Below the pieces are notes generated by a model. The model ran no database searches, was not told the origin of the DNA, and saw only the letters and a program-made list of their open reading frames with translations. The translations under genes and the position numbers were made by a program. A stretch of DNA of 46,029 nucleotides from a virus, in UHGV virus genome UHGV-0229940, one strand, 5' to 3'. The number at the start of each line of letters is the position of its first letter. Positions within the stretch are counted from its first letter, which is position 1. Below are positions 10,298 through 40,378 of this stretch, one piece after another.

Positions 10298-10374
10298 CTC
10301 TGTTTAGCTCAGCTTGGTAGAGCGTTCCGTTTGGGGCGGTAAGGCCGGAGGTTCAAGTCCTCCAACAGAGACCA
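10298..10374 (+). tRNA. tRNA-Pro (anticodon TGG)
   Basis: Manual cloverleaf: acceptor CTCTGTT/AACAGAG, T-arm GGAGG-TTCAAGT-CCTCC, anticodon loop TTTGGGG, CCA encoded. Confidence 0.7.
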
Positions 10375-10381
10375 AATTAAT

Positions 10382-10456
10382 GTTCCAGTAGACAAAATGG
10401 TAAAGTCACCACTCTTTCAAAGTGGATATCTGAGGGTTCAAATCCCTTCTGGAACG
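10382..10456 (+). tRNA. tRNA-Glu (anticodon TTC)
   Basis: Acceptor GTTCCAG/CTGGAAC, anticodon stem CCACT/AGTGG, loop CTTTCAA. Confidence 0.7.
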
Positions 10457-10466
10457 CAAGTTTTGA

Positions 10467-10540
10467 CAGAAGACCAATTACAGCAAACTTAATCTACTCA
10501 TCTGACACGAAATCGGACAAAGAAGATATTTGGTCTGGTC
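10467..10540 (+). ncRNA. inter-tRNA structured spacer element, copy 1 (5' box CAGAAGACC-NNN-TACAGCAA, 3' box GGTCTGG; AGACCAAT pairs with ATTTGGTCT)
   Basis: Conserved boxes with a complementary flank whose sequence differs between copies while pairing is kept. Confidence 0.5.
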
Positions 10541-10549
10541 ATTGAGAAT

Positions 10550-10626
10550 TGCGGGTATAGAGAAAGGGCGTCTCACATGTCTCATTAGCATGGTATCGGC
10601 AGGTTCGACTCCTGCACCCGCCTCCA
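10550..10626 (+). tRNA. tRNA-Met (anticodon CAT); position 1:72 is a T:C mismatch
   Basis: T-arm GCAGG-TTCGACT-CCTGC, acceptor 3' ACCCGCC, anticodon loop CTCATTA, CCA encoded. Confidence 0.6.
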
Positions 10627-10632
10627 ATTTTG

Positions 10633-10694
10633 CAGAAGACCGTATTCAGCAACAAAATACTTTTTGCGGATAAAAGAAAAAACACGGTCTGGCA
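10633..10694 (+). ncRNA. inter-tRNA structured spacer element, copy 2 (AGACCGT pairs with ACGGTCT)
   Basis: Same CAGAAGACC ... CAGCAA 5' box and GGTCTGG 3' box as copy 1, with compensatory change in the pairing flank. Confidence 0.5.
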
Positions 10695-10703
10695 ATGTAT
10701 TAA

Positions 10704-10780
10704 GGTTAGGAAGCACATAAGGTATGTGCGGTCGCCTGTTAAGCGAATGGCACAGGGTTCGAATCCCTGACTAACCGCCA
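10704..10780 (+). tRNA. tRNA-Asn (anticodon GTT)
   Basis: T-arm CAGGG-TTCGAAT-CCCTG, anticodon loop CTGTTAA, CCA encoded. Confidence 0.7.
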
Positions 10781-10788
10781 AATTAAAT

Positions 10789-10876
10789 GTGTCGTTATCC
10801 CGTAGATGGTAGCGGTGGGGACTGTAAATCCCTTGTCATTGAGACTCGGTAGGTTCGACTCCTACACGGCACACCA
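10789..10876 (+). tRNA. tRNA-Tyr (anticodon GTA), long variable arm
   Basis: 88 nt; anticodon stem GGGGA/TCCCT, loop CTGTAAA; T-arm GTAGG-TTCGACT-CCTAC. Confidence 0.7.
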
Positions 10877-10881
10877 ATAAA

Positions 10882-10958
10882 GGCTATGTAGTTTAACTGG
10901 AGAAAATACTCCCCTGTCACGGGAGATGATGTGAGTTCAAGTCTCATCGTAGCCGCCA
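10882..10958 (+). tRNA. tRNA-Asp (anticodon GTC)
   Basis: Anticodon stem CTCCC/GGGAG, loop CTGTCAC; acceptor GGCTATG/CGTAGCC. Confidence 0.7.
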
Positions 10959-11019
10959 ATTTTGAGAGGGCTATTTAGCCCCTCCCTTAAAGAGTTCTTA
11001 CGAGTATTCTTTAAAGGAG

Positions 11020-11095
11020 CAGAAGACCAAATACAGCAAGAATGTATGAAATTTCAAGCCAATTTAATTTTGAAAATTTAAAACTTGGTCTGGCT
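11020..11095 (+). ncRNA. inter-tRNA structured spacer element, copy 3 (AGACCAA pairs with TTGGTCT)
   Basis: Conserved 5' and 3' boxes with covarying complementary flank. Confidence 0.5.
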
Positions 11096-11106
11096 CAACA
11101 AATTTA

Positions 11107-11238
11107 CAGAAGACCGTTTACAGCAAAACTTAAACAATCTATTTCTCCGGTAAAGAAAAGGCGAAGGTTCGATTCCTTCACTCGGCAGATGTCGAGTTGG
11201 TGTAATGGTAGCACTTAAGATGATAAACAACGGTCTGG
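11107..11238 (+). ncRNA. inter-tRNA structured spacer element, copy 4 (AGACCGTT pairs with AACGGTCT), enclosing a permuted tRNA-like segment
   Basis: Same boxes as copies 1-3; internal segment 11139-11214 has tRNA anticodon-arm, T-arm and acceptor-3' features followed by acceptor-5' and D-arm features. Confidence 0.45.
11139..11214 (+). pseudogene. permuted or fragmentary tRNA-like sequence (3' two-thirds precedes a complementary 5' acceptor and D-arm)
   Basis: Anticodon-like stem TTTCT/AGAAA, T-arm GAAGG-TTCGATT-CCTTC, acceptor-3' ACTCGGC, then GTCGAGT (pairs with ACTCGGC) and D-arm GTGTAATGGTAGCAC. Confidence 0.35.
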
Positions 11239-11241
11239 TAA

Positions 11242-11257
11242 TTATCTTTGTAGATAA
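11242..11257. repeat. palindromic hairpin TTATCT-TTGT-AGATAA (left copy)
   Basis: Exact reverse complement of the copy at 11366-11381. Confidence 0.6.
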
Positions 11258-11365
11258 GTTATTAAGCTTACCTGTGAGTATGCGACCACAAAGGGTGAAA
11301 GGGTAAATTCTAGATTTAAACCCAAAAAGGCACATCGCTACAGACCTTAAGCAAGTCTGGGTAGC

Positions 11366-11381
11366 TTATCTACAAAGATAA
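11366..11381. repeat. palindromic hairpin TTATCT-ACAA-AGATAA (right copy, inverted relative to 11242-11257)
   Basis: The two copies bracket a 108 bp segment. Confidence 0.6.
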
Positions 11382-11387
11382 TTTAAT

Positions 11388-11463
11388 GGAAGTGTAGCAG
11401 AATGGTGATGCGGCAGACTTTTAATCTGACAGGCGATGGGTTCGAATCCCTCCACTTCTACCA
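11388..11463 (+). tRNA. tRNA-Lys (anticodon TTT)
   Basis: Anticodon stem CAGA/TCTG, loop CTTTTAA; acceptor GGAAGTG/CACTTCT; CCA encoded. Confidence 0.6.
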
Positions 11464-11467
11464 ATAT

Positions 11468-11544
11468 GGTTCAGTCGCAGATAAGGTAATGCAAGGGTCT
11501 CATAAGCCCTATGAATGTGGGTTCGATTCCCATCTGAACCTCCA
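11468..11544 (+). tRNA. tRNA with CAT anticodon (Met, initiator or Ile-lysidine type; GGG/CCC run in anticodon stem)
   Basis: Perfect acceptor GGTTCAG/CTGAACC, anticodon loop CTCATAA, T-arm GTGGG-TTCGATT-CCCAT. Confidence 0.7.
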
Positions 11545-11545
11545 A

Positions 11546-11621
11546 GCTGGTATAGTTAAGAAGGTTATAACACTCCCCTGATAAGGGAACATCGGTGGTT
11601 CGATTCCACCTACCAGTACCA
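11546..11621 (+). tRNA. tRNA-Ile (anticodon GAT)
   Basis: Anticodon loop CTGATAA; T-arm GGTGG-TTCGATT-CCACC. Confidence 0.65.
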
Positions 11622-11636
11622 ATTTCAATAAAGTTG

Positions 11637-11665
11637 TTGACATTGAGATGTGACTACTTTATAGT
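11637..11665 (+). promoter_or_regulatory. strong sigma70-like promoter inside the tRNA array (TTGACA, 17 nt spacer, TATAGT)
   Basis: -35 at 11637-11642, -10 at 11660-11665. Confidence 0.6.
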
Positions 11666-11868
11666 AACCTTAGTTTTCGTTGCGTAGCGTCTATTTTGCA
11701 AATTTAAAATAAATGCAAACGACAATGTTTTTCTGGCAGTAGCTTGATAGGCTAAACACCAGTGAGGTCTTCCAATCCCTCATCAAAGAATTTGGCGTAC
11801 TAGCCCACGGTATGATTAATAAGGTGGGCATCTTTAAGGGCTTTCTAAGAGAGTCTTTAAAGATTAAT
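11666..11868 (+). ncRNA. about 200 nt promoter-proximal non-tRNA spacer; candidate small stable RNA
   Basis: No ORF and no tRNA fold found; contains stem GCCCAC/GTGGGC (about 11789-11814); downstream of the promoter at 11637. Confidence 0.3.
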
Positions 11869-11945
11869 GCACCCTTAGTTCAATTGGATAGAGCAACGGT
11901 CTTCTAAATCGTTAGTTACAGGTTCGAATCCTGTAGGGTGTGCCA
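11869..11945 (+). tRNA. tRNA-Arg (anticodon TCT)
   Basis: D-arm GTTC-AATTGGATA-GAGC, anticodon stem ACGGT/ATCGT, loop CTTCTAA. Confidence 0.7.
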
Positions 11946-12087
11946 ATTAGTTAGCAGATTACTTAGACGACCTAAGCGGGTCTTCCTGTAGGGAGGTGGT
12001 CTGTATCTCATGTTTTCCAGAACATGTAAATAATCTGAGAAGGGGCTTTACAGTGTTGAGATAATACGGTAAGCTTCGAATTATAAT

Positions 12088-12170
12088 ATGGGACGATGTT
12101 AAGACTCTAAGGCATGAGCAACGGCCTCCAAAACCGTTTCAAAGGGGTTCAACTCCTCCGTCCCATGCCA
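12088..12170 (+). tRNA. tRNA-Trp-like (anticodon CCA) with about 7 extra nucleotides between acceptor and D-arm
   Basis: Perfect acceptor ATGGGAC/GTCCCAT, anticodon stem ACGG/CCGT, loop CTCCAAA; total about 80 nt without CCA. Confidence 0.5.
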
Positions 12171-12183
12171 AAGTCTTATTAGG

Positions 12184-12271
12184 GGTAGGTAGCGGCTAAT
12201 GGTAGCCAAACTGTCTTGAAAACAGTTGCCACTGTAGAGATACGGTGAGGGTTCGACTCCTTTACTTACCG
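12184..12271 (+). tRNA. tRNA-Ser (anticodon TGA), long variable arm
   Basis: Anticodon stem ACTGT/ACAGT, loop CTTGAAA; 88 nt. Confidence 0.7.
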
Positions 12272-12429
12272 CCTAATAAGGTTTAAAGCCAAGCTTCATT
12301 CGGATGTTGCTTTGGTATCCCTCGTGTATTGTCGTACAAGCACAGTAAAGCACCTAGTAGGTGTCACGGAGAAGAGATAATATCAAGCTCTCCAAAGGTT
12401 CTAGTCACCGGATTAAACAAGACTATGCA

Positions 12430-12451
12430 AAGACCTTTTTAGGTCTTTTTA
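12430..12451 (+). terminator. terminator-like hairpin inside the tRNA array (AAGACC-TTTTTA-GGTCTT then T-run)
   Basis: 6 bp perfect stem followed by TTTTT. Confidence 0.4.
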
Positions 12452-12529
12452 GAGGGCTTCTAAGGTTATTACAGCTTGTTGTGGAACCTTGTTGCTTAGG
12501 TTCTTAGAAGTTCTCTAAAAAGATTTAAT

Positions 12530-12607
12530 GGGAGATTGACGGTAATTGGTAAACCTACCATCCTTAGAAGTTGGTGTTTGAGGGTTCGAATCCCTTGTCT
12601 CCTACCA
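12530..12607 (+). tRNA. tRNA with anticodon TAG (Leu decoding) but short variable arm
   Basis: Acceptor GGGAGAT/GTCTCCT, T-arm GAGGG-TTCGAAT-CCCTT, anticodon loop CTTAGAA; 78 nt. Confidence 0.5.
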
Positions 12608-12614
12608 AATTAAT

Positions 12615-12690
12615 GCAGGTGTAGCAAAATGGTTATGCGGCTGACTCTTAATCAGTAAGACGATGGGTTCAATTCCCTCCACCTGTACCA
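12615..12690 (+). tRNA. tRNA-Lys (anticodon CTT)
   Basis: Anticodon stem GCTGA/TCAGT, loop CTCTTAA; paralogous to the Lys-TTT gene. Confidence 0.6.
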
Positions 12691-12696
12691 GACATT

Positions 12697-12772
12697 GGGG
12701 ATGTAGTTTACATGGTTAAAACATAAGTTTTGCAAACTTAAGTACAGGGTTCAATTCCCTGCTTCTCCACCA
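12697..12772 (+). tRNA. tRNA-Ala (anticodon TGC) with G3:U70 identity pair
   Basis: Anticodon stem TAAGT/ACTTA, loop TTTGCAA; G at position 3 opposite T at position 70. Confidence 0.7.
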
Positions 12773-12778
12773 ATTAGT

Positions 12779-12853
12779 GCATCCATAGTTTAAACGGGAA
12801 AATTACAGTCTTCCAAACTGAGGTTGAGGGTTCGATTCCCTCTGGATGCTCCA
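12779..12853 (+). tRNA. tRNA-Gly (anticodon TCC)
   Basis: Perfect acceptor GCATCCA/TGGATGC, anticodon loop CTTCCAA. Confidence 0.7.
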
Positions 12854-12860
12854 AATTAAT

Positions 12861-12937
12861 GCTGCTTTCGTATAATTGGCTATTACACATCCCTTGTAAG
12901 GATGGAAATGCGGGTTCGAGTCCTGTGAGCAGCACCA
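12861..12937 (+). tRNA. tRNA-Thr (anticodon TGT)
   Basis: Anticodon stem CATCC/GGATG, loop CTTGTAA. Confidence 0.7.
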
Positions 12938-13032
12938 ATTCAGAGGTCAAGTGAAAGACCGCTGGTGTCAACTGAAGACCGTAACAAATTCCACGGAGTT
13001 GAGTTAGCGGCACAACTTCAGACCTCTTTCAC

Positions 13033-13107
13033 ACTCGCTTAGTTTATATGGTAAAACATCACCCTTACAAGATGAAGAAAAAGGTTCAAGTCCTTTAGTG
13101 AGTACCA
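13033..13107 (+). tRNA. tRNA-Val (anticodon TAC)
   Basis: T-arm AAAGG-TTCAAGT-CCTTT, anticodon loop CTTACAA. Confidence 0.6.
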
Positions 13108-13108
13108 T

Positions 13109-13186
13109 GTTCCAGTATCCCAATTGGCAGAGGATGCAAGCTCAAACCTTGTATTAGTGACGGTTCGAATCCGTCTTGGAACACCA
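13109..13186 (+). tRNA. tRNA with anticodon CAA (Leu decoding) but short variable arm
   Basis: Acceptor GTTCCAG/TTGGAAC, T-arm GACGG-TTCGAAT-CCGTC, anticodon loop CTCAAAC. Confidence 0.5.
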
Positions 13187-13191
13187 ATTTT

Positions 13192-13267
13192 GCAGGATTA
13201 GTTCAAATGGATAGAGCAACAGTCTACGAAGCTGTTAATAGGGGTTCGAATCCCTTATCCTGCGCCA
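13192..13267 (+). tRNA. tRNA-Arg (anticodon ACG)
   Basis: Perfect acceptor GCAGGAT/ATCCTGC, anticodon loop CTACGAA. Confidence 0.7.
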
Positions 13268-13284
13268 GATAAAAAGGTGATACT

Positions 13285-13527
13285 ATGCAAACATTAACAG
13301 TAGTTGAACATGAAAACTGTGAGAATATTGAGTTTGTCAGGGTCATTGGTGTTGAACACCACATTTTCTTAAAAGTAGGGTACTTATGTGACCCCGCTAG
13401 AGTAGAAAGATTTATACGTGATTGTTTTGGTGGTAGACAGCTAAAGAGTGTTATTTTTGAGACAGTTTTACCAGAAGGTTTAGAAACGAATAATAACATT
13501 TATCTCCTTACAAGGATTAGACGATGA
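13285..13527 (+). CDS. hypothetical protein encoded inside the tRNA array
   Basis: 80 aa ORF with SD AAAGGTGA upstream. Confidence 0.5.
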   Translation: MQTLTVVEHENCENIEFVRVIGVEHHIFLKVGYLCDPARVERFIRDCFGGRQLKSVIFETVLPEGLETNNNIYLLTRIRR

Positions 13528-14081
13528 GATATTTAAAATATGCTTCATGGATTTTCCTAGCTTTGCTAGAACCATTAGCAGCAACCTTAGCAGTTATCTT
13601 AGCACCTTTCGTAGTTCCATTTTACAGTGAGAAGAAAGGCCACTTACCTTTCGGATTTAGATGGATGGAGACATATGACAACCCAATTGATGGTGACGAA
13701 GGTCATATCGAACGATGGGCTAAGATTAGAAAGATTGGTAAGCTGGGTGTCTACATGCAGAGAGTCGGATGGCTCTGGAGAAACAAAGCTTATAACTTCT
13801 CTTACCATGTATTAGGAAGAGATGTAAAAGATGTTACTAAGTGGAAAGGTAATATCAACGTAAGTTCTGACCCTGAAGATAATCAGACAGGTTATCTCCT
13901 AATGTGGAACAGTAATGCTTGGGGATTATTCGCTTTTATCCCATCAATTAAAGTCTTTGGTAAACAGTTTTACTGGAGAATTTATATTGGATGGAAACTA
14001 AAAAGTGTTGTCCCAGAAGAAAGAGCATTCTCAAGGGAAAGAGTTATGTTGGCATTCTTTATTCATCCACTGAGAAAGTAA
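13524..14081 (+). CDS. hypothetical membrane-anchored protein encoded inside the tRNA array
   Basis: 185 aa; N-terminal hydrophobic segment ASWIFLALLEPLAATLAVILAPFVVPF; 4 nt overlap with the upstream ORF. Confidence 0.6.
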   Translation: MRYLKYASWIFLALLEPLAATLAVILAPFVVPFYSEKKGHLPFGFRWMETYDNPIDGDEGHIERWAKIRKIGKLGVYMQRVGWLWRNKAYNFSYHVLGRDVKDVTKWKGNINVSSDPEDNQTGYLLMWNSNAWGLFAFIPSIKVFGKQFYWRIYIGWKLKSVVPEERAFSRERVMLAFFIHPLRK

Positions 14082-14089
14082 AGATTTAA

Positions 14090-14165
14090 AGGGGATTAGT
14101 TTACAAGGTTAAAACCTCGGTCTTTGAAATCGAAGAAGTTGGTTCAATTCCAACATCCCCCGCCA
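14090..14165 (+). tRNA. tRNA-Gln (anticodon TTG), weak 1:72 pair
   Basis: D-stem GTTT/AAAC, anticodon stem TCGGT/ATCGA, loop CTTTGAA. Confidence 0.65.
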
Positions 14166-14167
14166 AT

Positions 14168-14246
14168 GCTCCATTACTCCAATTGGCAGAGAGGCCAGAC
14201 TTAAAATCTGTGTTATGTATCGGTTCGAATCCGATATGGAGTACCA
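14168..14246 (+). tRNA. tRNA with anticodon TAA (Leu decoding) but short variable arm
   Basis: Acceptor GCTCCAT/ATGGAGT, T-arm ATCGG-TTCGAAT-CCGAT, anticodon loop CTTAAAA. Confidence 0.5.
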
Positions 14247-14251
14247 AATTT

Positions 14252-14327
14252 AGCGGTATAGCATAACTGGCAATGCAACAGTCTCTGAAGCTGTCCTATT
14301 AAGGTTCAAATCCTTATGCCGCTGCCA
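14252..14327 (+). tRNA. tRNA-Gln (anticodon CTG)
   Basis: Anticodon stem ACAGT/GCTGT, loop CTCTGAA. Confidence 0.6.
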
Positions 14328-14358
14328 CTTCTAAGGGTTCTTACGAGAGTCCTTAAAT

Positions 14359-14434
14359 GTGGCCTTATCATAAATGGTAATGACCCATGCTGTGAACATG
14401 GTCTATACGGGTTCAAATCCCGTAGGTCACCCCA
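14359..14434 (+). tRNA. tRNA-His (anticodon GTG)
   Basis: Anticodon stem CCATG/CATGG, loop CTGTGAA; T-arm ACGGG-TTCAAAT-CCCGT. Confidence 0.7.
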
Positions 14435-14439
14435 ATTTA

Positions 14440-14516
14440 TAGTCCAAGTAGCTTATATGGTTAAAGCGCGTGTCTGAAAAACATGAGAAGAGGGTTCAAA
14501 TCCCACTGGACTACCA
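14440..14516 (+). tRNA. tRNA-Phe (anticodon GAA)
   Basis: Perfect acceptor TAGTCCA/TGGACTA, anticodon loop CTGAAAA. Confidence 0.65.
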
Positions 14517-14532
14517 ATTTCAAAGGTGCTTA

Positions 14533-15267
14533 ATGAAAGAGATGACAGAACAAGGTAAGGAGATTTTTAATCTCTTAAAAACCGGTAAAGGGTTTTCTAA
14601 CCCACTTATTACTGGTGCAGCAGTTCTCGGTGGAACCGTAGCTGCTTCTACATCACTTGTAAGCTCTATTAGTTCTGTAACAGACCCTACAATGCAGGAG
14701 AAACTTGTTGCTGCTGGACTTACAACAGTCCTTCTAAACAGCTTTACAACAAGCCTTACAAGCACTACAGCAACTACTAAGACCCTGACAGACTACGGTC
14801 AAAAATCTATTGATGAGTTTTCATCACGTATGCAGGTAGCAAAGGGATATTCCAATGTTATGGGTGCAGCAGGAGAACAAGTTGGTTGTACACCGTTCAG
14901 TGGTATTATGGGTGTTGCTACAGAATATGGTCAAAAAGCTATTGATACGATTAACAGTACACTAGAGAGTGTTAACGATGTATTAAGTGACTTACAAGAC
15001 GCTATTGACAAGGGTCTTGATACTGTTTCTGATTTAGCTAACCAAGCTGTCAGTAAGATTAATGAAGGTATCTCAAAGATTACAGCTTATGCAGATGAAG
15101 TTGTGCAGATGATTGAAGAAGAAGCTGCCCTTATTGCAGAGTACCTTAAAACGAATATCAATGGGTTCTTAGCAGGTATCTTACCAGACTGGTTTGATGA
15201 TGCCTGTAAAACTGGTGTAATTGACACTATTGCAACACCAGAAATGAAGAACGCATTACAGAAATAA
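14533..15267 (+). CDS. hypothetical Ser/Thr-rich protein encoded inside the tRNA array
   Basis: Six-frame ORF 14470-15267 would overlap two tRNAs, so start is placed at Met 14533 (MKEMTEQ ...); 244 aa. Confidence 0.6.
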   Translation: MKEMTEQGKEIFNLLKTGKGFSNPLITGAAVLGGTVAASTSLVSSISSVTDPTMQEKLVAAGLTTVLLNSFTTSLTSTTATTKTLTDYGQKSIDEFSSRMQVAKGYSNVMGAAGEQVGCTPFSGIMGVATEYGQKAIDTINSTLESVNDVLSDLQDAIDKGLDTVSDLANQAVSKINEGISKITAYADEVVQMIEEEAALIAEYLKTNINGFLAGILPDWFDDACKTGVIDTIATPEMKNALQK

Positions 15268-15361
15268 TGGAAGATTAACCCTAAAAGGTAAGGGAGCAGT
15301 TTGCTAAACTGCCAGTAGCTGAGAAATCGGTGTACCAGTTCAAGTCTGGTATCTTCCTCCA
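15268..15361 (+). tRNA. tRNA-Ser (anticodon GCT), long variable arm
   Basis: Perfect acceptor GGAAGAT/ATCTTCC, anticodon stem GCAGT/ACTGC, loop TTGCTAA; 94 nt. Confidence 0.7.
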
Positions 15362-15365
15362 ATTT

Positions 15366-15441
15366 GAATCCGTGACAGAAATGGCTATGTGCCTGTCTGC
15401 AAAACAGGTTTATAAGGGTTCGAGTCCCTTCGGATTCTCCA
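15366..15441 (+). tRNA. tRNA-Cys (anticodon GCA)
   Basis: Perfect acceptor GAATCCG/CGGATTC, anticodon stem CCTGT/ACAGG, loop CTGCAAA. Confidence 0.7.
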
Positions 15442-27145: not shown

Positions 27146-35164
<8,019 letters not shown>

Positions 35165-35166
35165 TA

Positions 35167-36354
35167 ATGGCAGTAGGTGAAATTCAAATTAGTGCCTTGC
35201 CTCAAGCAGCCTTACCAATTGACCTTAGTGATATCTTCCATCTTAAGCAGGGTATTGAGGATAAGAGATGTACTCTTGAGCAATTACTTGCTCCACACTC
35301 AAGCCTAAGAAATAACCCTCATGGTGTGACTAAAACACAAATTGGTTTAGATAACGTTATTAATGCTCTTCAGTTAGTTGCTGCAAATAACTTATCAGAT
35401 ATTGTTAATGTAGCTGAGGCAAGAGCAAATCTACAGATTATGTCTTCAGAAGAGGTTAATAACCTTGTTCAACAGCATATTCAGGACAAGAGCAACCCAC
35501 ACAATACAACTAAGGCACAGGTAGGATTGAGTAATGTTCAGAACTGGACAACATCTAACCTTTATAATGAAGATGCAGATAAGTATGCTACAGCAAGAGC
35601 AGTAAATAACTTGTACAAGGCTGTTCAGGCTTCCTATCCAGTAGGTACTATCCATCTTTCCATGAACTCTGCAAACCCTTCTACATATTTAATTTGTGGA
35701 GGTACTTGGGAGTTAGTTTCAAAAGGTAGAGCGTTGGTTGGTTATGACTCTGACACAAGACCAGCAGGTTCTGTATTTGGTGCTTCAACTGTCACTTTGT
35801 CAGTTAATAACATGCCTCAACACTCTCACTCTGTGTCTCTTAGTGGTGGTGGTCATACTCATAATGCAACGGTGTCAATTTCAGCTTTTGATTATGGAAC
35901 TAAGACTACTAACTCTTTTGACTATGGAACTAAGACCACTAACACGACTGGTAACCATAACCATGTTGGTAGTGGGTCAACAAGTTCTGCTGGTGCTCAC
36001 AACCACAGATTGACATATGAAGCAGGTGGTGGCCTATCGGAAAGACCTGCAATGGTTTGGTCTACAAGAAATGACCAATCATGGTACTCAGCAGATGCTG
36101 TCTGTGAAGTAGCTGGTGCACACACTCACTCTTTCAGTGTTACTACTAACACAACTGGTGACCATTCTCACTCTGTAGGTATCGGTGCTCACAGTCATAC
36201 GGTTGGTATTGGTTCACATACGCACAATGGTACTGTGACAGTTTCTTCTTCTGAGCATACACATAGCGGGAATACTAACAGTGTTGGTGGTGGACAAGCT
36301 TTCAACATTGAGCAGCCATCCTTCGTACTGTATGTATGGCAGAGAACAGCTTAA
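35167..36354 (+). CDS. tail fiber protein with phage-fiber repeats and His-X-His-rich C-terminal tip
   Basis: 395 aa; repeats NPHGVTKTQIGLDNV and NPHNTTKAQVGLSNV; C-terminal HTHN/HNHV/HTHS/HSHS/HTHT motifs and duplicated SFDYGTKTTN. Confidence 0.8.
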   Translation: MAVGEIQISALPQAALPIDLSDIFHLKQGIEDKRCTLEQLLAPHSSLRNNPHGVTKTQIGLDNVINALQLVAANNLSDIVNVAEARANLQIMSSEEVNNLVQQHIQDKSNPHNTTKAQVGLSNVQNWTTSNLYNEDADKYATARAVNNLYKAVQASYPVGTIHLSMNSANPSTYLICGGTWELVSKGRALVGYDSDTRPAGSVFGASTVTLSVNNMPQHSHSVSLSGGGHTHNATVSISAFDYGTKTTNSFDYGTKTTNTTGNHNHVGSGSTSSAGAHNHRLTYEAGGGLSERPAMVWSTRNDQSWYSADAVCEVAGAHTHSFSVTTNTTGDHSHSVGIGAHSHTVGIGSHTHNGTVTVSSSEHTHSGNTNSVGGGQAFNIEQPSFVLYVWQRTA

Positions 36355-36400
36355 TTTCTTTACAGGGGCTTGATAGCCCCTTTTAAGAGGAAAATTTATA

Positions 36401-38794
36401 ATGGCAGATTACAAGTTGAGTGAATTAAACTCAATCGATACAATCCGTTCAGATGACCTTCTTCATGTCAGGGTTAAAAAGAGACCTGAAATGCTTGGCG
36501 ATGAAGACCGTCGAATGACCTATCAAGACTTCTTAGCATCTTTTAAACTTGAAAGATTTGTTCAGATTGCTGGTAGCACTATGGCTGGTGACTTAGGGAT
36601 TGTTAAGTTACTTTATGGTGGTAAGGCAGTCTTTGACCCAACAGGCTCTTCTGAGGTTACTATTGGGGATGTTTTAAAGACTTTTAAAATCAACGCAAAT
36701 GGCCTTAGACTAACTATTGCAGATGCTTCAAGGTCGGCAACTGTTTATCATACCCTGAATAAGCCAAGTCCTAATGAGCTTGGGATGAGAACTAATGAAG
36801 AGAATGATGCAAGATATGCAAGGTTGGCTGTGAATAATACCTTCAGGGGTGCTCAAACTATTCTATCTGACAATGAAACACTTATTGTTAAGAATATTAC
36901 ACAAGGGACGCCGCTATATATTCGTGGTCAAGATGCAGATGGGACTAACAGATGGTATCTAGGTAATGACCTTAAAGGTACAAATAACCTTGTATTGAAG
37001 AATGTAAAATCTGACGTTTCAATTGCTATTTTAGAAAATTTGGTGACAGTCAACAGAACTCTTCAAATTGCTGGTCAAGTTCAGCCTTCAAGTTTTGCTA
37101 ACTTAGATGCTAGATATTTTACTCAGACAGCAGCTAATCAGAGATTTGCACAGTTAGCTGGCGATAATACATTTAGTGGCGTTAATACATTTAACCAAAC
37201 TTTATCAATTTTAACGAATAGCGGAGCTTTAAGGTTAAAAAATACTATAGCAAATGGTGCACTGTACATTAAAGGTGAAAGTAGCGATGGCTCTGGTAAG
37301 TGGTATGTAGGTAATGGTGATAATACACCTGCTGTATTAATCCACAACTATACGTATGGCTCTAATCTTAGACTTGATAATGGTTATGTTGAAGTTAACA
37401 AGCAGCTTAGGGTTGTTGGTCAAGTTCAACCCTCTGATTGGACTAACATTGACTCTAGATATATTCCTAGTTCTCTGACAAGTGTCCTTGCAAGAACCGA
37501 TTCGGCTAATACTTTCACTAAAGGACAGACTATCCATGCTGGCACTGACAACCCTTTTAGACTACAGACAACAGTACAAGACTCTGGAATCTACATGTCT
37601 GCACATAATGCTGATGGGGGCAGGAGATGGTGGTTAGGTGTAGGTGGCTCAAACTCTAATGTGGTAACCTTAAACAATAGCTACTCTGGTACTCAAATTG
37701 CCCTTGAACCATCAGCAATTGTTGCGAATAAGAATTTAGCCATTACTGGTCAAGTGCAACCCTCTAATTGGGATAACTTAGATGCTAGGTATTTTGTTAA
37801 GACTCAGTTACTGAATCAATCATTGATGACAGTATCTGTAGATAACCTTGAAAACCCTTCAGGGTTTAATCTTGGGTACTCAGGTTTTGTCAGAAACAAT
37901 GCTGTTACTAGTGGACTGAAAGAATTGGCAATTCATGTTGCTCACTCTAATAAGACTGCTGCACATGCAAGAGGAATCTCTTTTGTGTATGGCTCAAATG
38001 GACTGGCAACATTCACCTATGCCTATGACAAAGATGGCAGATATGCTGGAGAAGCACAGATTTATACAACTGCCTTTAAACCAACCCCTTCAGATATTGG
38101 TGCATACACTAAAGCTGAAACTGACCAGAAGATTGCACAGGCAGTAAGTGACTCTACAGACCTTAACAAAATCTATCCAGTAGGTATCGTAACGTGGTTT
38201 AACAGTAATGTTGACCCTAATACAGCACTTCCTGGTCTAACTTGGACGTACCTGAACAATGGTGTTGGTAGAACTATCAGGATTGCAGCAGCAAATGGTT
38301 CAGATGTTGCTACAACAGGTGGTTCAGACTCTGTGACGTTAGCTGTTGGTAACTTACCATCACACACCCATAGTTTCTCTGCTACCACTTCATCTTTTGA
38401 TTATGGTACAAAGGGAACTAATAGTACTGGTGGTCATACTCACTCTGTAAGTGGTACAACAAGTGCTGCTGGTAACCACGCGCACCACTTAGGTCTGCTA
38501 TTAGTTAACGGTGGTGATGCTCAGTACGGTTATACAACTGTTAGCAATAACAAGACAAGAACTCTTGACTGGCTTGACAGAACTGATAACAAGTTCCCTA
38601 ACACTAACACGACTGGTAACCATACACACACATGGTCTGGTACTACAAGTAACACTGGTGCTCACACCCACTCTGTAGGTATCGGTGCTCACACTCATAC
38701 AGTTAGTGGTAACACTGGTGGCACAGGTTCTGGTTCAGCATTTAGTGTTACTAACCAGTTCTACAAGTTAATGGCTTGGGTGAGAACTGCTTAA
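36401..38794 (+). CDS. long tail fiber or tailspike protein with internal repeats and His-X-His-rich C-terminal tip
   Basis: 797 aa; three internal repeats ending in GQVQPS ... D(A/S)RY(F/I); C-terminal module shared with 35167-36354 ([14 protein letters not shown], ending VRTA). Confidence 0.8.
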
Positions 38795-38873
38795 TCCCTT
38801 GTTGACTGATTGTTAAGATGGTGTTAATATTCTTTATGGGTATTCTCACCATCTTGGCTGATGAGGTGATTAA

Positions 38874-39068
38874 ATGCCTACAATCCTAGCAATTCTTCTA
38901 AAAAATCTAGGTAGCTTCTTCTGGAAACTCATTTTATCCCTTCTAAGTGAATACATGATTGAGAAAGTGTTCTTTAAGCTTGCAAGATACCTTGCGAGTA
39001 AAACAGACACACCTATTGATGATGAGTTCGTAGATAACTTAGAAAAAGCTTTTAAGGGGGAGAAATAA
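38874..39068 (+). CDS. hypothetical small membrane protein
   Basis: 64 aa ORF with N-terminal hydrophobic segment ILAILLKNLGSFFWKLILSLL. Confidence 0.45.
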   Translation: MPTILAILLKNLGSFFWKLILSLLSEYMIEKVFFKLARYLASKTDTPIDDEFVDNLEKAFKGEK

Positions 39069-39440
39069 ATGAAGTGGCTAGAGGAAGCTTTTAAAAATAA
39101 TATTGGTGCAATTGTAGTTGGTATTTTTAGTGTTATTGGGATGTATACCACTATGCAAGTTTCAAGTGGTAAACAAGAAGTGTCTGTCACAACAAAGTTA
39201 CAGCAGCTAGATAATTATTCCAAAAGTAACTATTCAGCTATTCGTGATTTACAGTCTGACATGAGACTGATTCAGCTAGGGATGGAGAACCAGAAAGTTC
39301 AGTTAGAGAATGTTAAGGGTGAAAACGCAAAACTTACCAAAACTCTTGATAAATTCTCTGACAGTGTGAATAATCTGGCTCAATCAGTATCAGCCCTCCA
39401 AGCTATTACTGAGAAGAACACAAAGAATACTGAAAAATAA
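39069..39440 (+). CDS. hypothetical membrane-anchored coiled-coil protein
   Basis: 123 aa; N-terminal transmembrane helix IGAIVVGIFSVIGMYTTM followed by heptad-like Q/L/K-rich sequence. Confidence 0.55.
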   Translation: MKWLEEAFKNNIGAIVVGIFSVIGMYTTMQVSSGKQEVSVTTKLQQLDNYSKSNYSAIRDLQSDMRLIQLGMENQKVQLENVKGENAKLTKTLDKFSDSVNNLAQSVSALQAITEKNTKNTEK

Positions 39441-39446
39441 AATTTT

Positions 39447-39480
39447 AAGGCTCCTTTTGACGGGAGCCTTTTTTGTTTTT
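39447..39480. terminator. bidirectional rho-independent terminator between convergent operons
   Basis: Stem GGCTCC/GGAGCC (39449-39468) flanked by an A/T-rich run upstream and TTTTTTGTTTTT downstream. Confidence 0.7.
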
Positions 39481-40378
39481 ACTTACCTACTGACAAAGGC
39501 GCTTCAATCTTTCCTGCATGTTGGTAGTTGTTAATTCCACCGATAAAGTCACTTGCAGTGAGATGTTTTAGGTCACTTAAAGTGTTAAGTGGGATACCAA
39601 TCTCAAAAGTTGGTGCATGGAACTCTTCATTGTTCATCAGTTCATAAACCTGCTTCATATGGTTCTGATAAATCTGAGTATCTCCAAAGACACCTATCAA
39701 ATATCGTGGAGTGTATCCAGTCATCTTACAAAGGACTTCCAGAATAAAACCATAAGATGCAATGTTAAACGGAAGCCCTAAAAAGGTGTCTACAGAACGC
39801 TGATACCATTGTAAGTCAACTTCACCCTCGTTGGTGATATAAATCTGAAACAGAACATGACAAGGTGCTAAAGCCATTGAGTTTGCTGCAATATCTGCTG
39901 CATTCCAAGCGTTAACAAGCATGTAACGGTCTGTGATATCACCCTTCATCTTCGCTACTAAGGTCTCTAACTGGTCTACAACACAACCATCATGACCCTC
40001 AAAGTTTCTCCACTGAACCCCGTAGATTCTACCACCTGCATCCTCTAACCAGTCTTGTTCAGAGGAATAATTAGAGCTTAACCAGCGTTTAAAATCATCT
40101 GACCAGATAGTCCAGCGTTCCCCATCATTTTCACCCCAAGTACGGTAACGAAGTTCACCAAGTTTATTCTCGCCATTCAGGAACCATAAAGCTTCTCCGA
40201 TAACTTGCCGTGTAAACACCTGTTTAGATGTTAAGAGTGGGAAACCAGTTCGCATATCAAAACGGAACTGAGGTGGAGCAAAAGCAGAGATAACATCTCC
40301 AGTTCGTGTAGTACGCAGTTCACCAACTGATAAAACATGGTTCAGGATATTTTTATAACTTGTATCTGCTTGTGACAT
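39479..40378 (-). CDS. thyA: thymidylate synthase
   Basis: 299 aa; conserved motifs RTGxG-like TRTGDV, ALAPCH, LGLPFNIASY; uninterrupted ORF. Confidence 0.9.
   Translation of the reverse strand: MSQADTSYKNILNHVLSVGELRTTRTGDVISAFAPPQFRFDMRTGFPLLTSKQVFTRQVIGEALWFLNGENKLGELRYRTWGENDGERWTIWSDDFKRWLSSNYSSEQDWLEDAGGRIYGVQWRNFEGHDGCVVDQLETLVAKMKGDITDRYMLVNAWNAADIAANSMALAPCHVLFQIYITNEGEVDLQWYQRSVDTFLGLPFNIASYGFILEVLCKMTGYTPRYLIGVFGDTQIYQNHMKQVYELMNNEEFHAPTFEIGIPLNTLSDLKHLTASDFIGGINNYQHAGKIEAPLSVGK

Follow-up and report, generated by a model that had tools for sequence, protein, structure and literature searches.

Two adjacent tail fibre genes of the virus genome UHGV-0229940, a stretch of 46,029 nucleotides referred to here as the window, encode proteins that, judged by their homology, both end in a T4 gp37-type tip made of a collar, a needle and a head. 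The full reading is that these proteins are the short tail fibre (STF) and the long tail fibre (LTF) of a Felixounavirus, that each is a homotrimer whose tip combines a collar, a needle stiffened by a metal column and a head touching the host, and that host range evolves through exchange of the head cassette. This reading is given a probability of about 0.9. A preliminary description of the region had proposed T4-type receptor-binding tips on two different fibres, a proposal borne out by the match of both proteins to the crystal structure of the T4 tip, with their His-x-His (HxH) motifs in register.

Fibre genes and their genomic setting

The genome can be assigned by its sequence to Felixounavirus, as a Felix O1-like myophage and coliphage. 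In a megablast search, region 34800-39500 was 91–97% identical at the DNA level to many Felixounavirus genomes from Escherichia, Shigella and Salmonella. The gene order matches that of gp23-gp27 of phage Bas63 in the MZ501086 annotation: wedge 2 (489 aa, a Baseplate_J-type protein), wedge 1 (285 aa), the platform protein (100 aa), STF and LTF, with identical lengths for the three baseplate genes. The likeness continues on the 3' side of the LTF gene, where two small ORFs are followed by thyA/DHFR (thymidylate synthase, DHFR) on the opposite strand, an order also found in Bas63.

All fibre-related features described below lie on the + strand. The 100-aa baseplate protein (34862..35164) is equivalent to Bas63 gp25 by its length and position, which are those of bas63_0025, and matches PHROG 4141 (E 5e-62); its role as the LTF platform, a gp9-like attachment point for the LTF, is taken from the Bas63 study (PMC12609058). 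Two ORFs then occupy the region of interest. The first (35167..36354, 395 aa) encodes the STF, equivalent to Bas63 gp26, with which it shares 75% identity across residues 1-395 in BLASTP. It matches the tail fibre family PHROG 2097 along its entire length (E 4e-137), and tail fibre proteins annotated in 32 phage records share 97–99% identity with it. The second (36401..38794, 797 aa) encodes the LTF, equivalent to Bas63 gp27 (60% identity across residues 1-797), and matches the tail fibre family PHROG 4277 over its full length with 1214 bits. Between the two genes lies a 46-nt spacer (36355..36400) containing a hairpin followed by UUUU. The hairpin has a minimum free energy of -16.8 kcal/mol (z -3.3), its fold is conserved in Bas63, and the Shine-Dalgarno sequence of the LTF gene, AAGAGG (36385-36390), is base-paired with its outer stem.

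Collar, needle and head in the two tips

In the STF, the tip begins with a collar of the gp10/gp12/gp37-D10 type (aa 141-215, 35587..35811), which scores 68 bits against Pfam Gp10_C, where the cut-off is 27. The C-terminal domains of T4 gp10, gp11 and gp12 (PF21939 Gp10_C; PDB 2FKK, 1EL6) have the same collar fold as that preceding the needles of the window. T4 gp12 has a metal site. The match to T4 gp10 (E 2e-5) reaches only as far as STF aa 220, a little short of the needle. The ascending needle strand (aa 216-280, 35812..36006) aligns with the T4 tip structure and carries four HxH motifs, at aa 219, 230, 264 and 278, together with a tandem duplication of FDYGTKTTN (aa 241 and 251). It leads into a hypervariable head at the distal tip (aa 281-318, 36007..36120), recognized by column entropy and by cassette replacement in relatives, which is presumably the part that contacts the receptor. 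The descending strand (aa 319-370, 36121..36276) contains five further HxH motifs, at aa 319, 333, 342, 351 and 364. The protein closes with a C-terminal return strand (36277..36351), ending in FVLYVWQRTA, a segment that the family conserves, W391 and R393 without exception, and that presumably packs into the collar again.

The LTF places the same arrangement on a longer protein. Its shaft (aa 141-575, 36821..38125), for which the domain description follows the Bas63 study (PMC12609058), is built of recurring beta-helix units with conserved QVQPS..N.D.RY linkers between them and gives three Pfam gp37_trimer matches (E 3.9e-58). The shaft also contains the DNA repeat family D1, at 37067, 37412 and 37742, and shows a weak match to T7 gp17 (PDB 4A0T). 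The collar that follows (aa 576-652, 38126..38356) aligns with the STF collar in a single BLASTP HSP; its Pfam Gp10_C score of 22.5 bits falls under the cut-off of 27, and many close homologues carry PF21939. The ascending strand (aa 653-695, 38357..38485) holds three HxH motifs (aa 655, 679 and 693, the third in the form HAHH) and a single FDYGTKGTN (aa 666). The head (aa 696-740, 38486..38620) shows no sequence relationship to that of the STF. The descending strand (aa 741-770, 38621..38710) again holds three HxH motifs (aa 741, 755 and 764) and a Pfam Phage_fiber repeat at aa 760-772. The return strand (38711..38791), ending in LMAWVRTA, is invariant among 119 homologues and aligns with the STF C-terminus. 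In both fibres the collar stands directly upstream of the needle and is presumably closed by the C-terminal strand, in which W.R is invariant.

The density of HxH motifs in both proteins is far above chance. The STF has nine (four on the way up and five on the way back), and 5000 shuffled versions of the protein reached a mean of just 1.4 (maximum 7); for the six of the LTF (three and three), the corresponding mean was 0.53 and the maximum 4. These counts agree with the preliminary description, which had noted His-x-His-dense C-termini on both fibres. The individual motifs it quoted, HTHS, HSHS, HTHT and HNHV, are all present, as are its SFDYGTK(T/G)TN segments, in the form of the STF and LTF copies located above. 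The boundaries it had drawn correspond to sequence landmarks: its start at 35800 lies just before the first HxH of the STF (nt 35821), and its end is the LTF stop codon. The similar final beta-strand it had described is also found, with a trivial correction to the motif, which reads W(Q/V)RTA in the alignment rather than (V/W)(Q/V)RTA.

The relationship to T4 is apparent from direct structure-linked searches. With phmmer against the PDB, STF aa 146-367 match 2XGF, the crystal structure of the T4 gp37 tip, at E 1.4e-27, and LTF aa 650-776 match the same entry at E 1.1e-20; a profile built from 59 family sequences matches it at E 1.2e-30. The motifs are spaced in a closely comparable manner. In T4 gp37, successive HxH motifs are separated by 32 and 14 residues on the ascending strand, by a head gap of 37, and by 14, 9 and 9 residues on the descending strand. 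The STF follows the order 11, 34 and 14, a head gap of 41, and 14, 9, 9 and 13, and the LTF the order 24 and 14, a head gap of 48, and 14 and 9. A spacing of 14 before the head, and of 14 and 9 after it, is therefore common to all three proteins, with a further 9 shared by T4 and the STF. Compared with T4, the STF has one additional collar-proximal HxH on each strand, giving nine predicted sites, whereas the LTF has one HxH fewer on the returning strand, giving six. The tip of T4 gp37 (2XGF; domains D10 and D11) has the collar, the six-stranded HxH needle and the chain-reversing head that are predicted here for the window tips, and contains FDYGTKGTN almost verbatim.

The His-rich stretches could alternatively be compositional or repeat-driven, that is, flexible low-complexity linkers or a YmaF-like repeat without ordered metal sites. 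The sequence is indeed rich in G, S, T and H, there is a weak Pfam YmaF match (E 0.016), and the available monomer model has moderate confidence only. Such an origin is nevertheless extremely improbable, given the homology, at high significance, to a tip whose crystal structure shows the same motifs binding iron, and a motif spacing conserved exactly across T4, STF and LTF. In addition, 59 diverse homologues show no variation, or almost none, at the STF histidines at aa 219/221, 278/280, 319/321 and 351/353. The AlphaFold2 (AF2) monomer of the STF places long strands at 222-242 and 350-369, and at 267-273 and 320-326, on either side of a low-confidence head (283-315, pLDDT below 50), with a C-terminal strand at 389-393. 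At the level of a monomer model, this layout is as expected for a chain-reversing hairpin. For the ordered needle favoured here, metal binding by the STF and LTF tips would follow by homology with T4 gp37, in which seven iron atoms lie on the axis, held by HxH motifs with six His in octahedral coordination at each site, and the iron-binding histidines and the tip residues are essential (PMC6957217).

Old paralogous tips and exchangeable heads

The two tips of the window are related to each other over more than their His-rich parts. BLASTP aligns STF aa 136-346 with LTF aa 565-768 at 35% identity (E 7e-22), and the span of this alignment indicates that the shared module takes in the collar, beginning about 80 aa ahead of the His-rich part. 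Such sharing might reflect a recent event within this genome, either a duplication or a gene conversion involving its two fibre genes, and this would account for the identical domain order of the tips and for a 25-nt exact DNA match, CACTCTGTAGGTATCGGTGCTCACA, located in the HSVGIGAH box. The repeats that contain this match (36113-36207 and 38613-38707, 90–95 nt) are the best between the two genes and are just 71–74% identical, and at the protein level the tips share 34.5% identity, no more than the STF and LTF tips share with T4 gp37 (37% and 39%, respectively). The heads also show no cross matches: neither head type was found in homologues of the other fibre. Since the same distinction between STF and LTF already exists in Bas63 as well, a recent event within this genome is very unlikely. 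The level of identity, no higher between the two tips than to T4 gp37, argues instead that they are old paralogues of one fold and not the product of a recent swap.

Exchange between phages is a different matter, and is evident in the head. Column entropy across 48 STF relatives peaks in this segment. In relatives P0014-P0017, the N-terminus and collar are 95–100% identical to those of the window STF, but the head shares only 8–11% identity; judged by these values, the head of these proteins is a replaced cassette. Relative P0019 represents the reverse combination, with an N-terminus 67% and a head 82% identical to the window STF. The LTF behaves similarly, as the head is replaced (11–20% identity) in relatives P0202, P0207, P0231 and P0233, which retain a collar 96–99% identical to that of the window. 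Three of them, P0202, P0207 and P0233, have a new distal needle and head closely resembling those of T4 gp37 on a Felixounavirus collar, with approximately 90% identity to T4 gp37 in P0207 and P0233. T4-like heads on Felixounavirus LTF collars provide direct comparative evidence of cross-family swapping bounded by conserved His boxes. Recombination at the 'His boxes' of T-even distal fibres was reportedly described by Tetart, Krisch and colleagues in the 1990s. The module exchange suggested in the preliminary description is thus upheld as head replacement between phages, but not as exchange between these two genes, whose tips are too divergent and whose heads are unrelated.

The needle varies among relatives as well. 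Nine HxH motifs occur in 53 of 75 STF relatives and six in 13, while counts of seven and of ten are each found in 3 and a count of eight in 2; the remaining sequence, P0052, is a 281-aa fragment without HxH. The named relatives with six motifs include Erwinia and Hafnia phages.

The variability of the STF head bears on another possible role of this protein, namely that of a structural or regulatory strut, gp10-like or docking to the sheath, which would leave host recognition to the LTF only. The Pfam match of the STF is indeed to the C-terminal domain of the baseplate protein gp10, and in the extended Bas63 tail the head of this fibre rests on the sheath, between domains D2 and D3 of ring 10 (PMC12609058). 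Yet the head is the most variable segment of the STF, replaced as a cassette while the remainder stays 95–100% identical, which is expected of a host-facing surface and not of a contact with a conserved sheath. The needle region, moreover, matches the receptor-binding gp37 tip far better than it does gp10 (E 1.4e-27 vs 2e-5). A purely structural STF is therefore improbable, and a host-binding STF is preferred.

Proposed function and relation to known fibres

The two-fibre tip architecture, including two baseplate attachment sites, is already known from Bas63 (Escherichia phage JohannRWettstein; Sci Adv 2025), a phage that shares its genus, gene order and two-fibre system with the window. Both Bas63 fibres have a T4-gp37-like collar, an HxH needle and a head; the STF contains seven HxH motifs and the LTF six plus an extra His, variability maps to the tips, and gp52 and gp53 of phage Sf14 are organized identically (PMC12609058). 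In that phage, the STF is attached to the wedge-2 protein through domain 2 of the latter and the LTF to a small gp9-like platform trimer; until infection begins, the two fibres are aligned along the sheath (PMC12609058). The preliminary description had also raised the possibility of different attachment geometries for the two fibres, and the Bas63 cryo-EM structure supports it by placing the same two fibres at two baseplate sites (PMC12609058). The window differs from Bas63 in several details. Its STF has 395 aa and nine HxH motifs (4+5), whereas that of Bas63 has 382 aa and seven (2+5), lacking two distal ascending motifs. The extra His of the LTF occurs as HxHH in the window and as HHxH in Bas63, and the head segments differ in both fibres.

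By the mechanism proposed here, STF and LTF would each form a homotrimer anchored by its N-terminus, with the Baseplate_J-type wedge protein carrying the STF and the 100-aa platform carrying the LTF. In each tip, the needle chain would run out to the tip and double back, giving six strands per trimer, and the HxH motifs of the three chains would point towards the threefold axis, where they would bind metal ions arranged in a column, with nine sites predicted in the STF and six in the LTF. This column may stiffen the thin needle, while the final W(Q/V)RTA strand would go back to the collar. The small distal head is expected to touch the host surface, most likely LPS-core structures in Felixounavirus; we infer both this receptor identity and the trimer geometry for the two tips. 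Felixounaviruses have been described as dependent on LPS rather than on protein receptors (PMC8594841; bioRxiv 10.64898/2026.04.02.716166). Because the STF and LTF heads are unrelated, the two fibres likely differ in the surface features that they recognize or in the step of adsorption at which they act. Host range would change through recombination of the head cassette within the flanking conserved His-box DNA and protein.

The comparison with T4 also defines what is particular to these fibres. T4 gp37 has seven HxH motifs (3+4), compared with nine and six in the window STF and LTF, and its head is unrelated in sequence to both window heads. Its collar domain D10 includes residues 1010-1026 (PMC6957217), and among Tequatrovirus gp37 proteins the number of HxH repeats ranges from seven to nine (PMC6563267). 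The T4 tip is carried on a four-protein distal fibre of the 1026-aa class, whereas the window tips sit directly on short single-protein fibres. T4 gp37 further requires gp38 and gp57A (PMC6957217). No gp38-like chaperone gene was found next to the window fibres, where the downstream ORFs 38874..39068 and 39069..39440 match only PHROGs of unknown function. Tentatively, Felixounavirus tips could represent a minimal, self-assembling and length-tunable form of the T4 needle that dispenses with a gp38-type chaperone, with heads that read two LPS-core epitopes. The needle would deserve to be called minimal and tunable if the tips fold without such a chaperone and if needle length differs among relatives by entire metal sites (HxH counts of six, seven, nine and ten); this extension of the main reading is possible but rather doubtful.

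Relative to what was established for Bas63, the window represents another allele combination, one in which the STF needle has nine motifs and the heads of both fibres are of particular types. New here are the recognition that the nine-motif STF, as opposed to the seven-motif form of Bas63, is the majority state among relatives, the domain boundaries in window coordinates, and the T4-like head on some related LTFs. Felix O1-like phages are widely used in Salmonella and E. coli typing, biocontrol and therapy, and the head cassettes are likely determinants of their host range. The boundaries between collar, needle and head, together with the His boxes flanking the swappable head, may therefore offer cut points for host-range engineering in these phages.

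Fibre shafts

Residues 46-125 of the short tail fibre (window 35300-35540) carry two copies of an NPHxxTKxQ(I/V)GLxNV repeat, at residues 50-64 and 110-124, a shaft motif common to other phage fibres. The family profile of this protein also matched PDB entry 9zd7, annotated as 'short tail fiber gp92', over residues 68-150 (E 1e-10). In the long tail fibre, the beta-helix repeats of the shaft (residues 141-465; window 36821-37795) show a mean identity of only 65% among the 119 best homologues of the protein, against 90-99% conservation in the tip. The repeats are joined by short QVQPS..N.D.RY linkers, which are conserved and correspond to a DNA repeat family with members at 37067, 37412 and 37742. 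Independently of its tip, the shaft of the long fibre is a mosaic; unexpected shaft variability was also noted in the study of the related phage Bas63 (PMC12609058).

Fibre gene spacer and flanking regions

The two fibre genes are separated by a 46-nt spacer (36355-36400), predicted to fold into a conserved hairpin followed by UUUU (MFE -16.8 kcal/mol, z -3.3), the outer stem of which pairs with the Shine-Dalgarno sequence of the long-fibre gene, AAGAGG. Bas63 has the same hairpin with a single change in the loop. The ratio of short to long fibres may be set by this element, working either as an attenuator or as a damper of translation.

Directly 3' of the long-fibre gene lie two small ORFs of 64 and 123 aa (38874-39440), both beginning with a hydrophobic segment and matching solely PHROG families of unknown function. 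One of them gave a faint Rz-like spanin match (E 0.009), some related records annotate a holin at this position, and neither ORF resembles a tail-fibre chaperone. A bidirectional terminator-like hairpin follows at 39447-39470 (AAGGCTCC...GGAGCCTT, flanked by a T-run on each strand), at the junction between the late genes of the plus strand and the thymidylate synthase/DHFR block of the minus strand.

Upstream of the structural genes lies a plus-strand cluster of 26 tRNA genes (10298-15441), including tRNA-His(GTG) at 14359-14434; Felix O1-like phages typically encode many tRNAs.

T4-like heads on related long fibres

Outside the window, three Felixounavirus homologues of the long fibre (P0202, P0207 and P0233; 784-785 aa) have a distal needle and head that closely resemble those of T4 gp37, with about 90% identity in P0207 and P0233. 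This segment includes the sequence YIEAWNGTG.GG..MSSYA.SYR.GG, and the collar beneath it is of the Felixounavirus type. Judged from these sequences, the arrangement looks like a head cassette swapped across families, with the His boxes, the conserved HxH-bearing segments flanking the head, as its boundaries. Such heads suggest that receptor specificity may be T4-like (OmpC/LPS) in some Felix O1-like phages.
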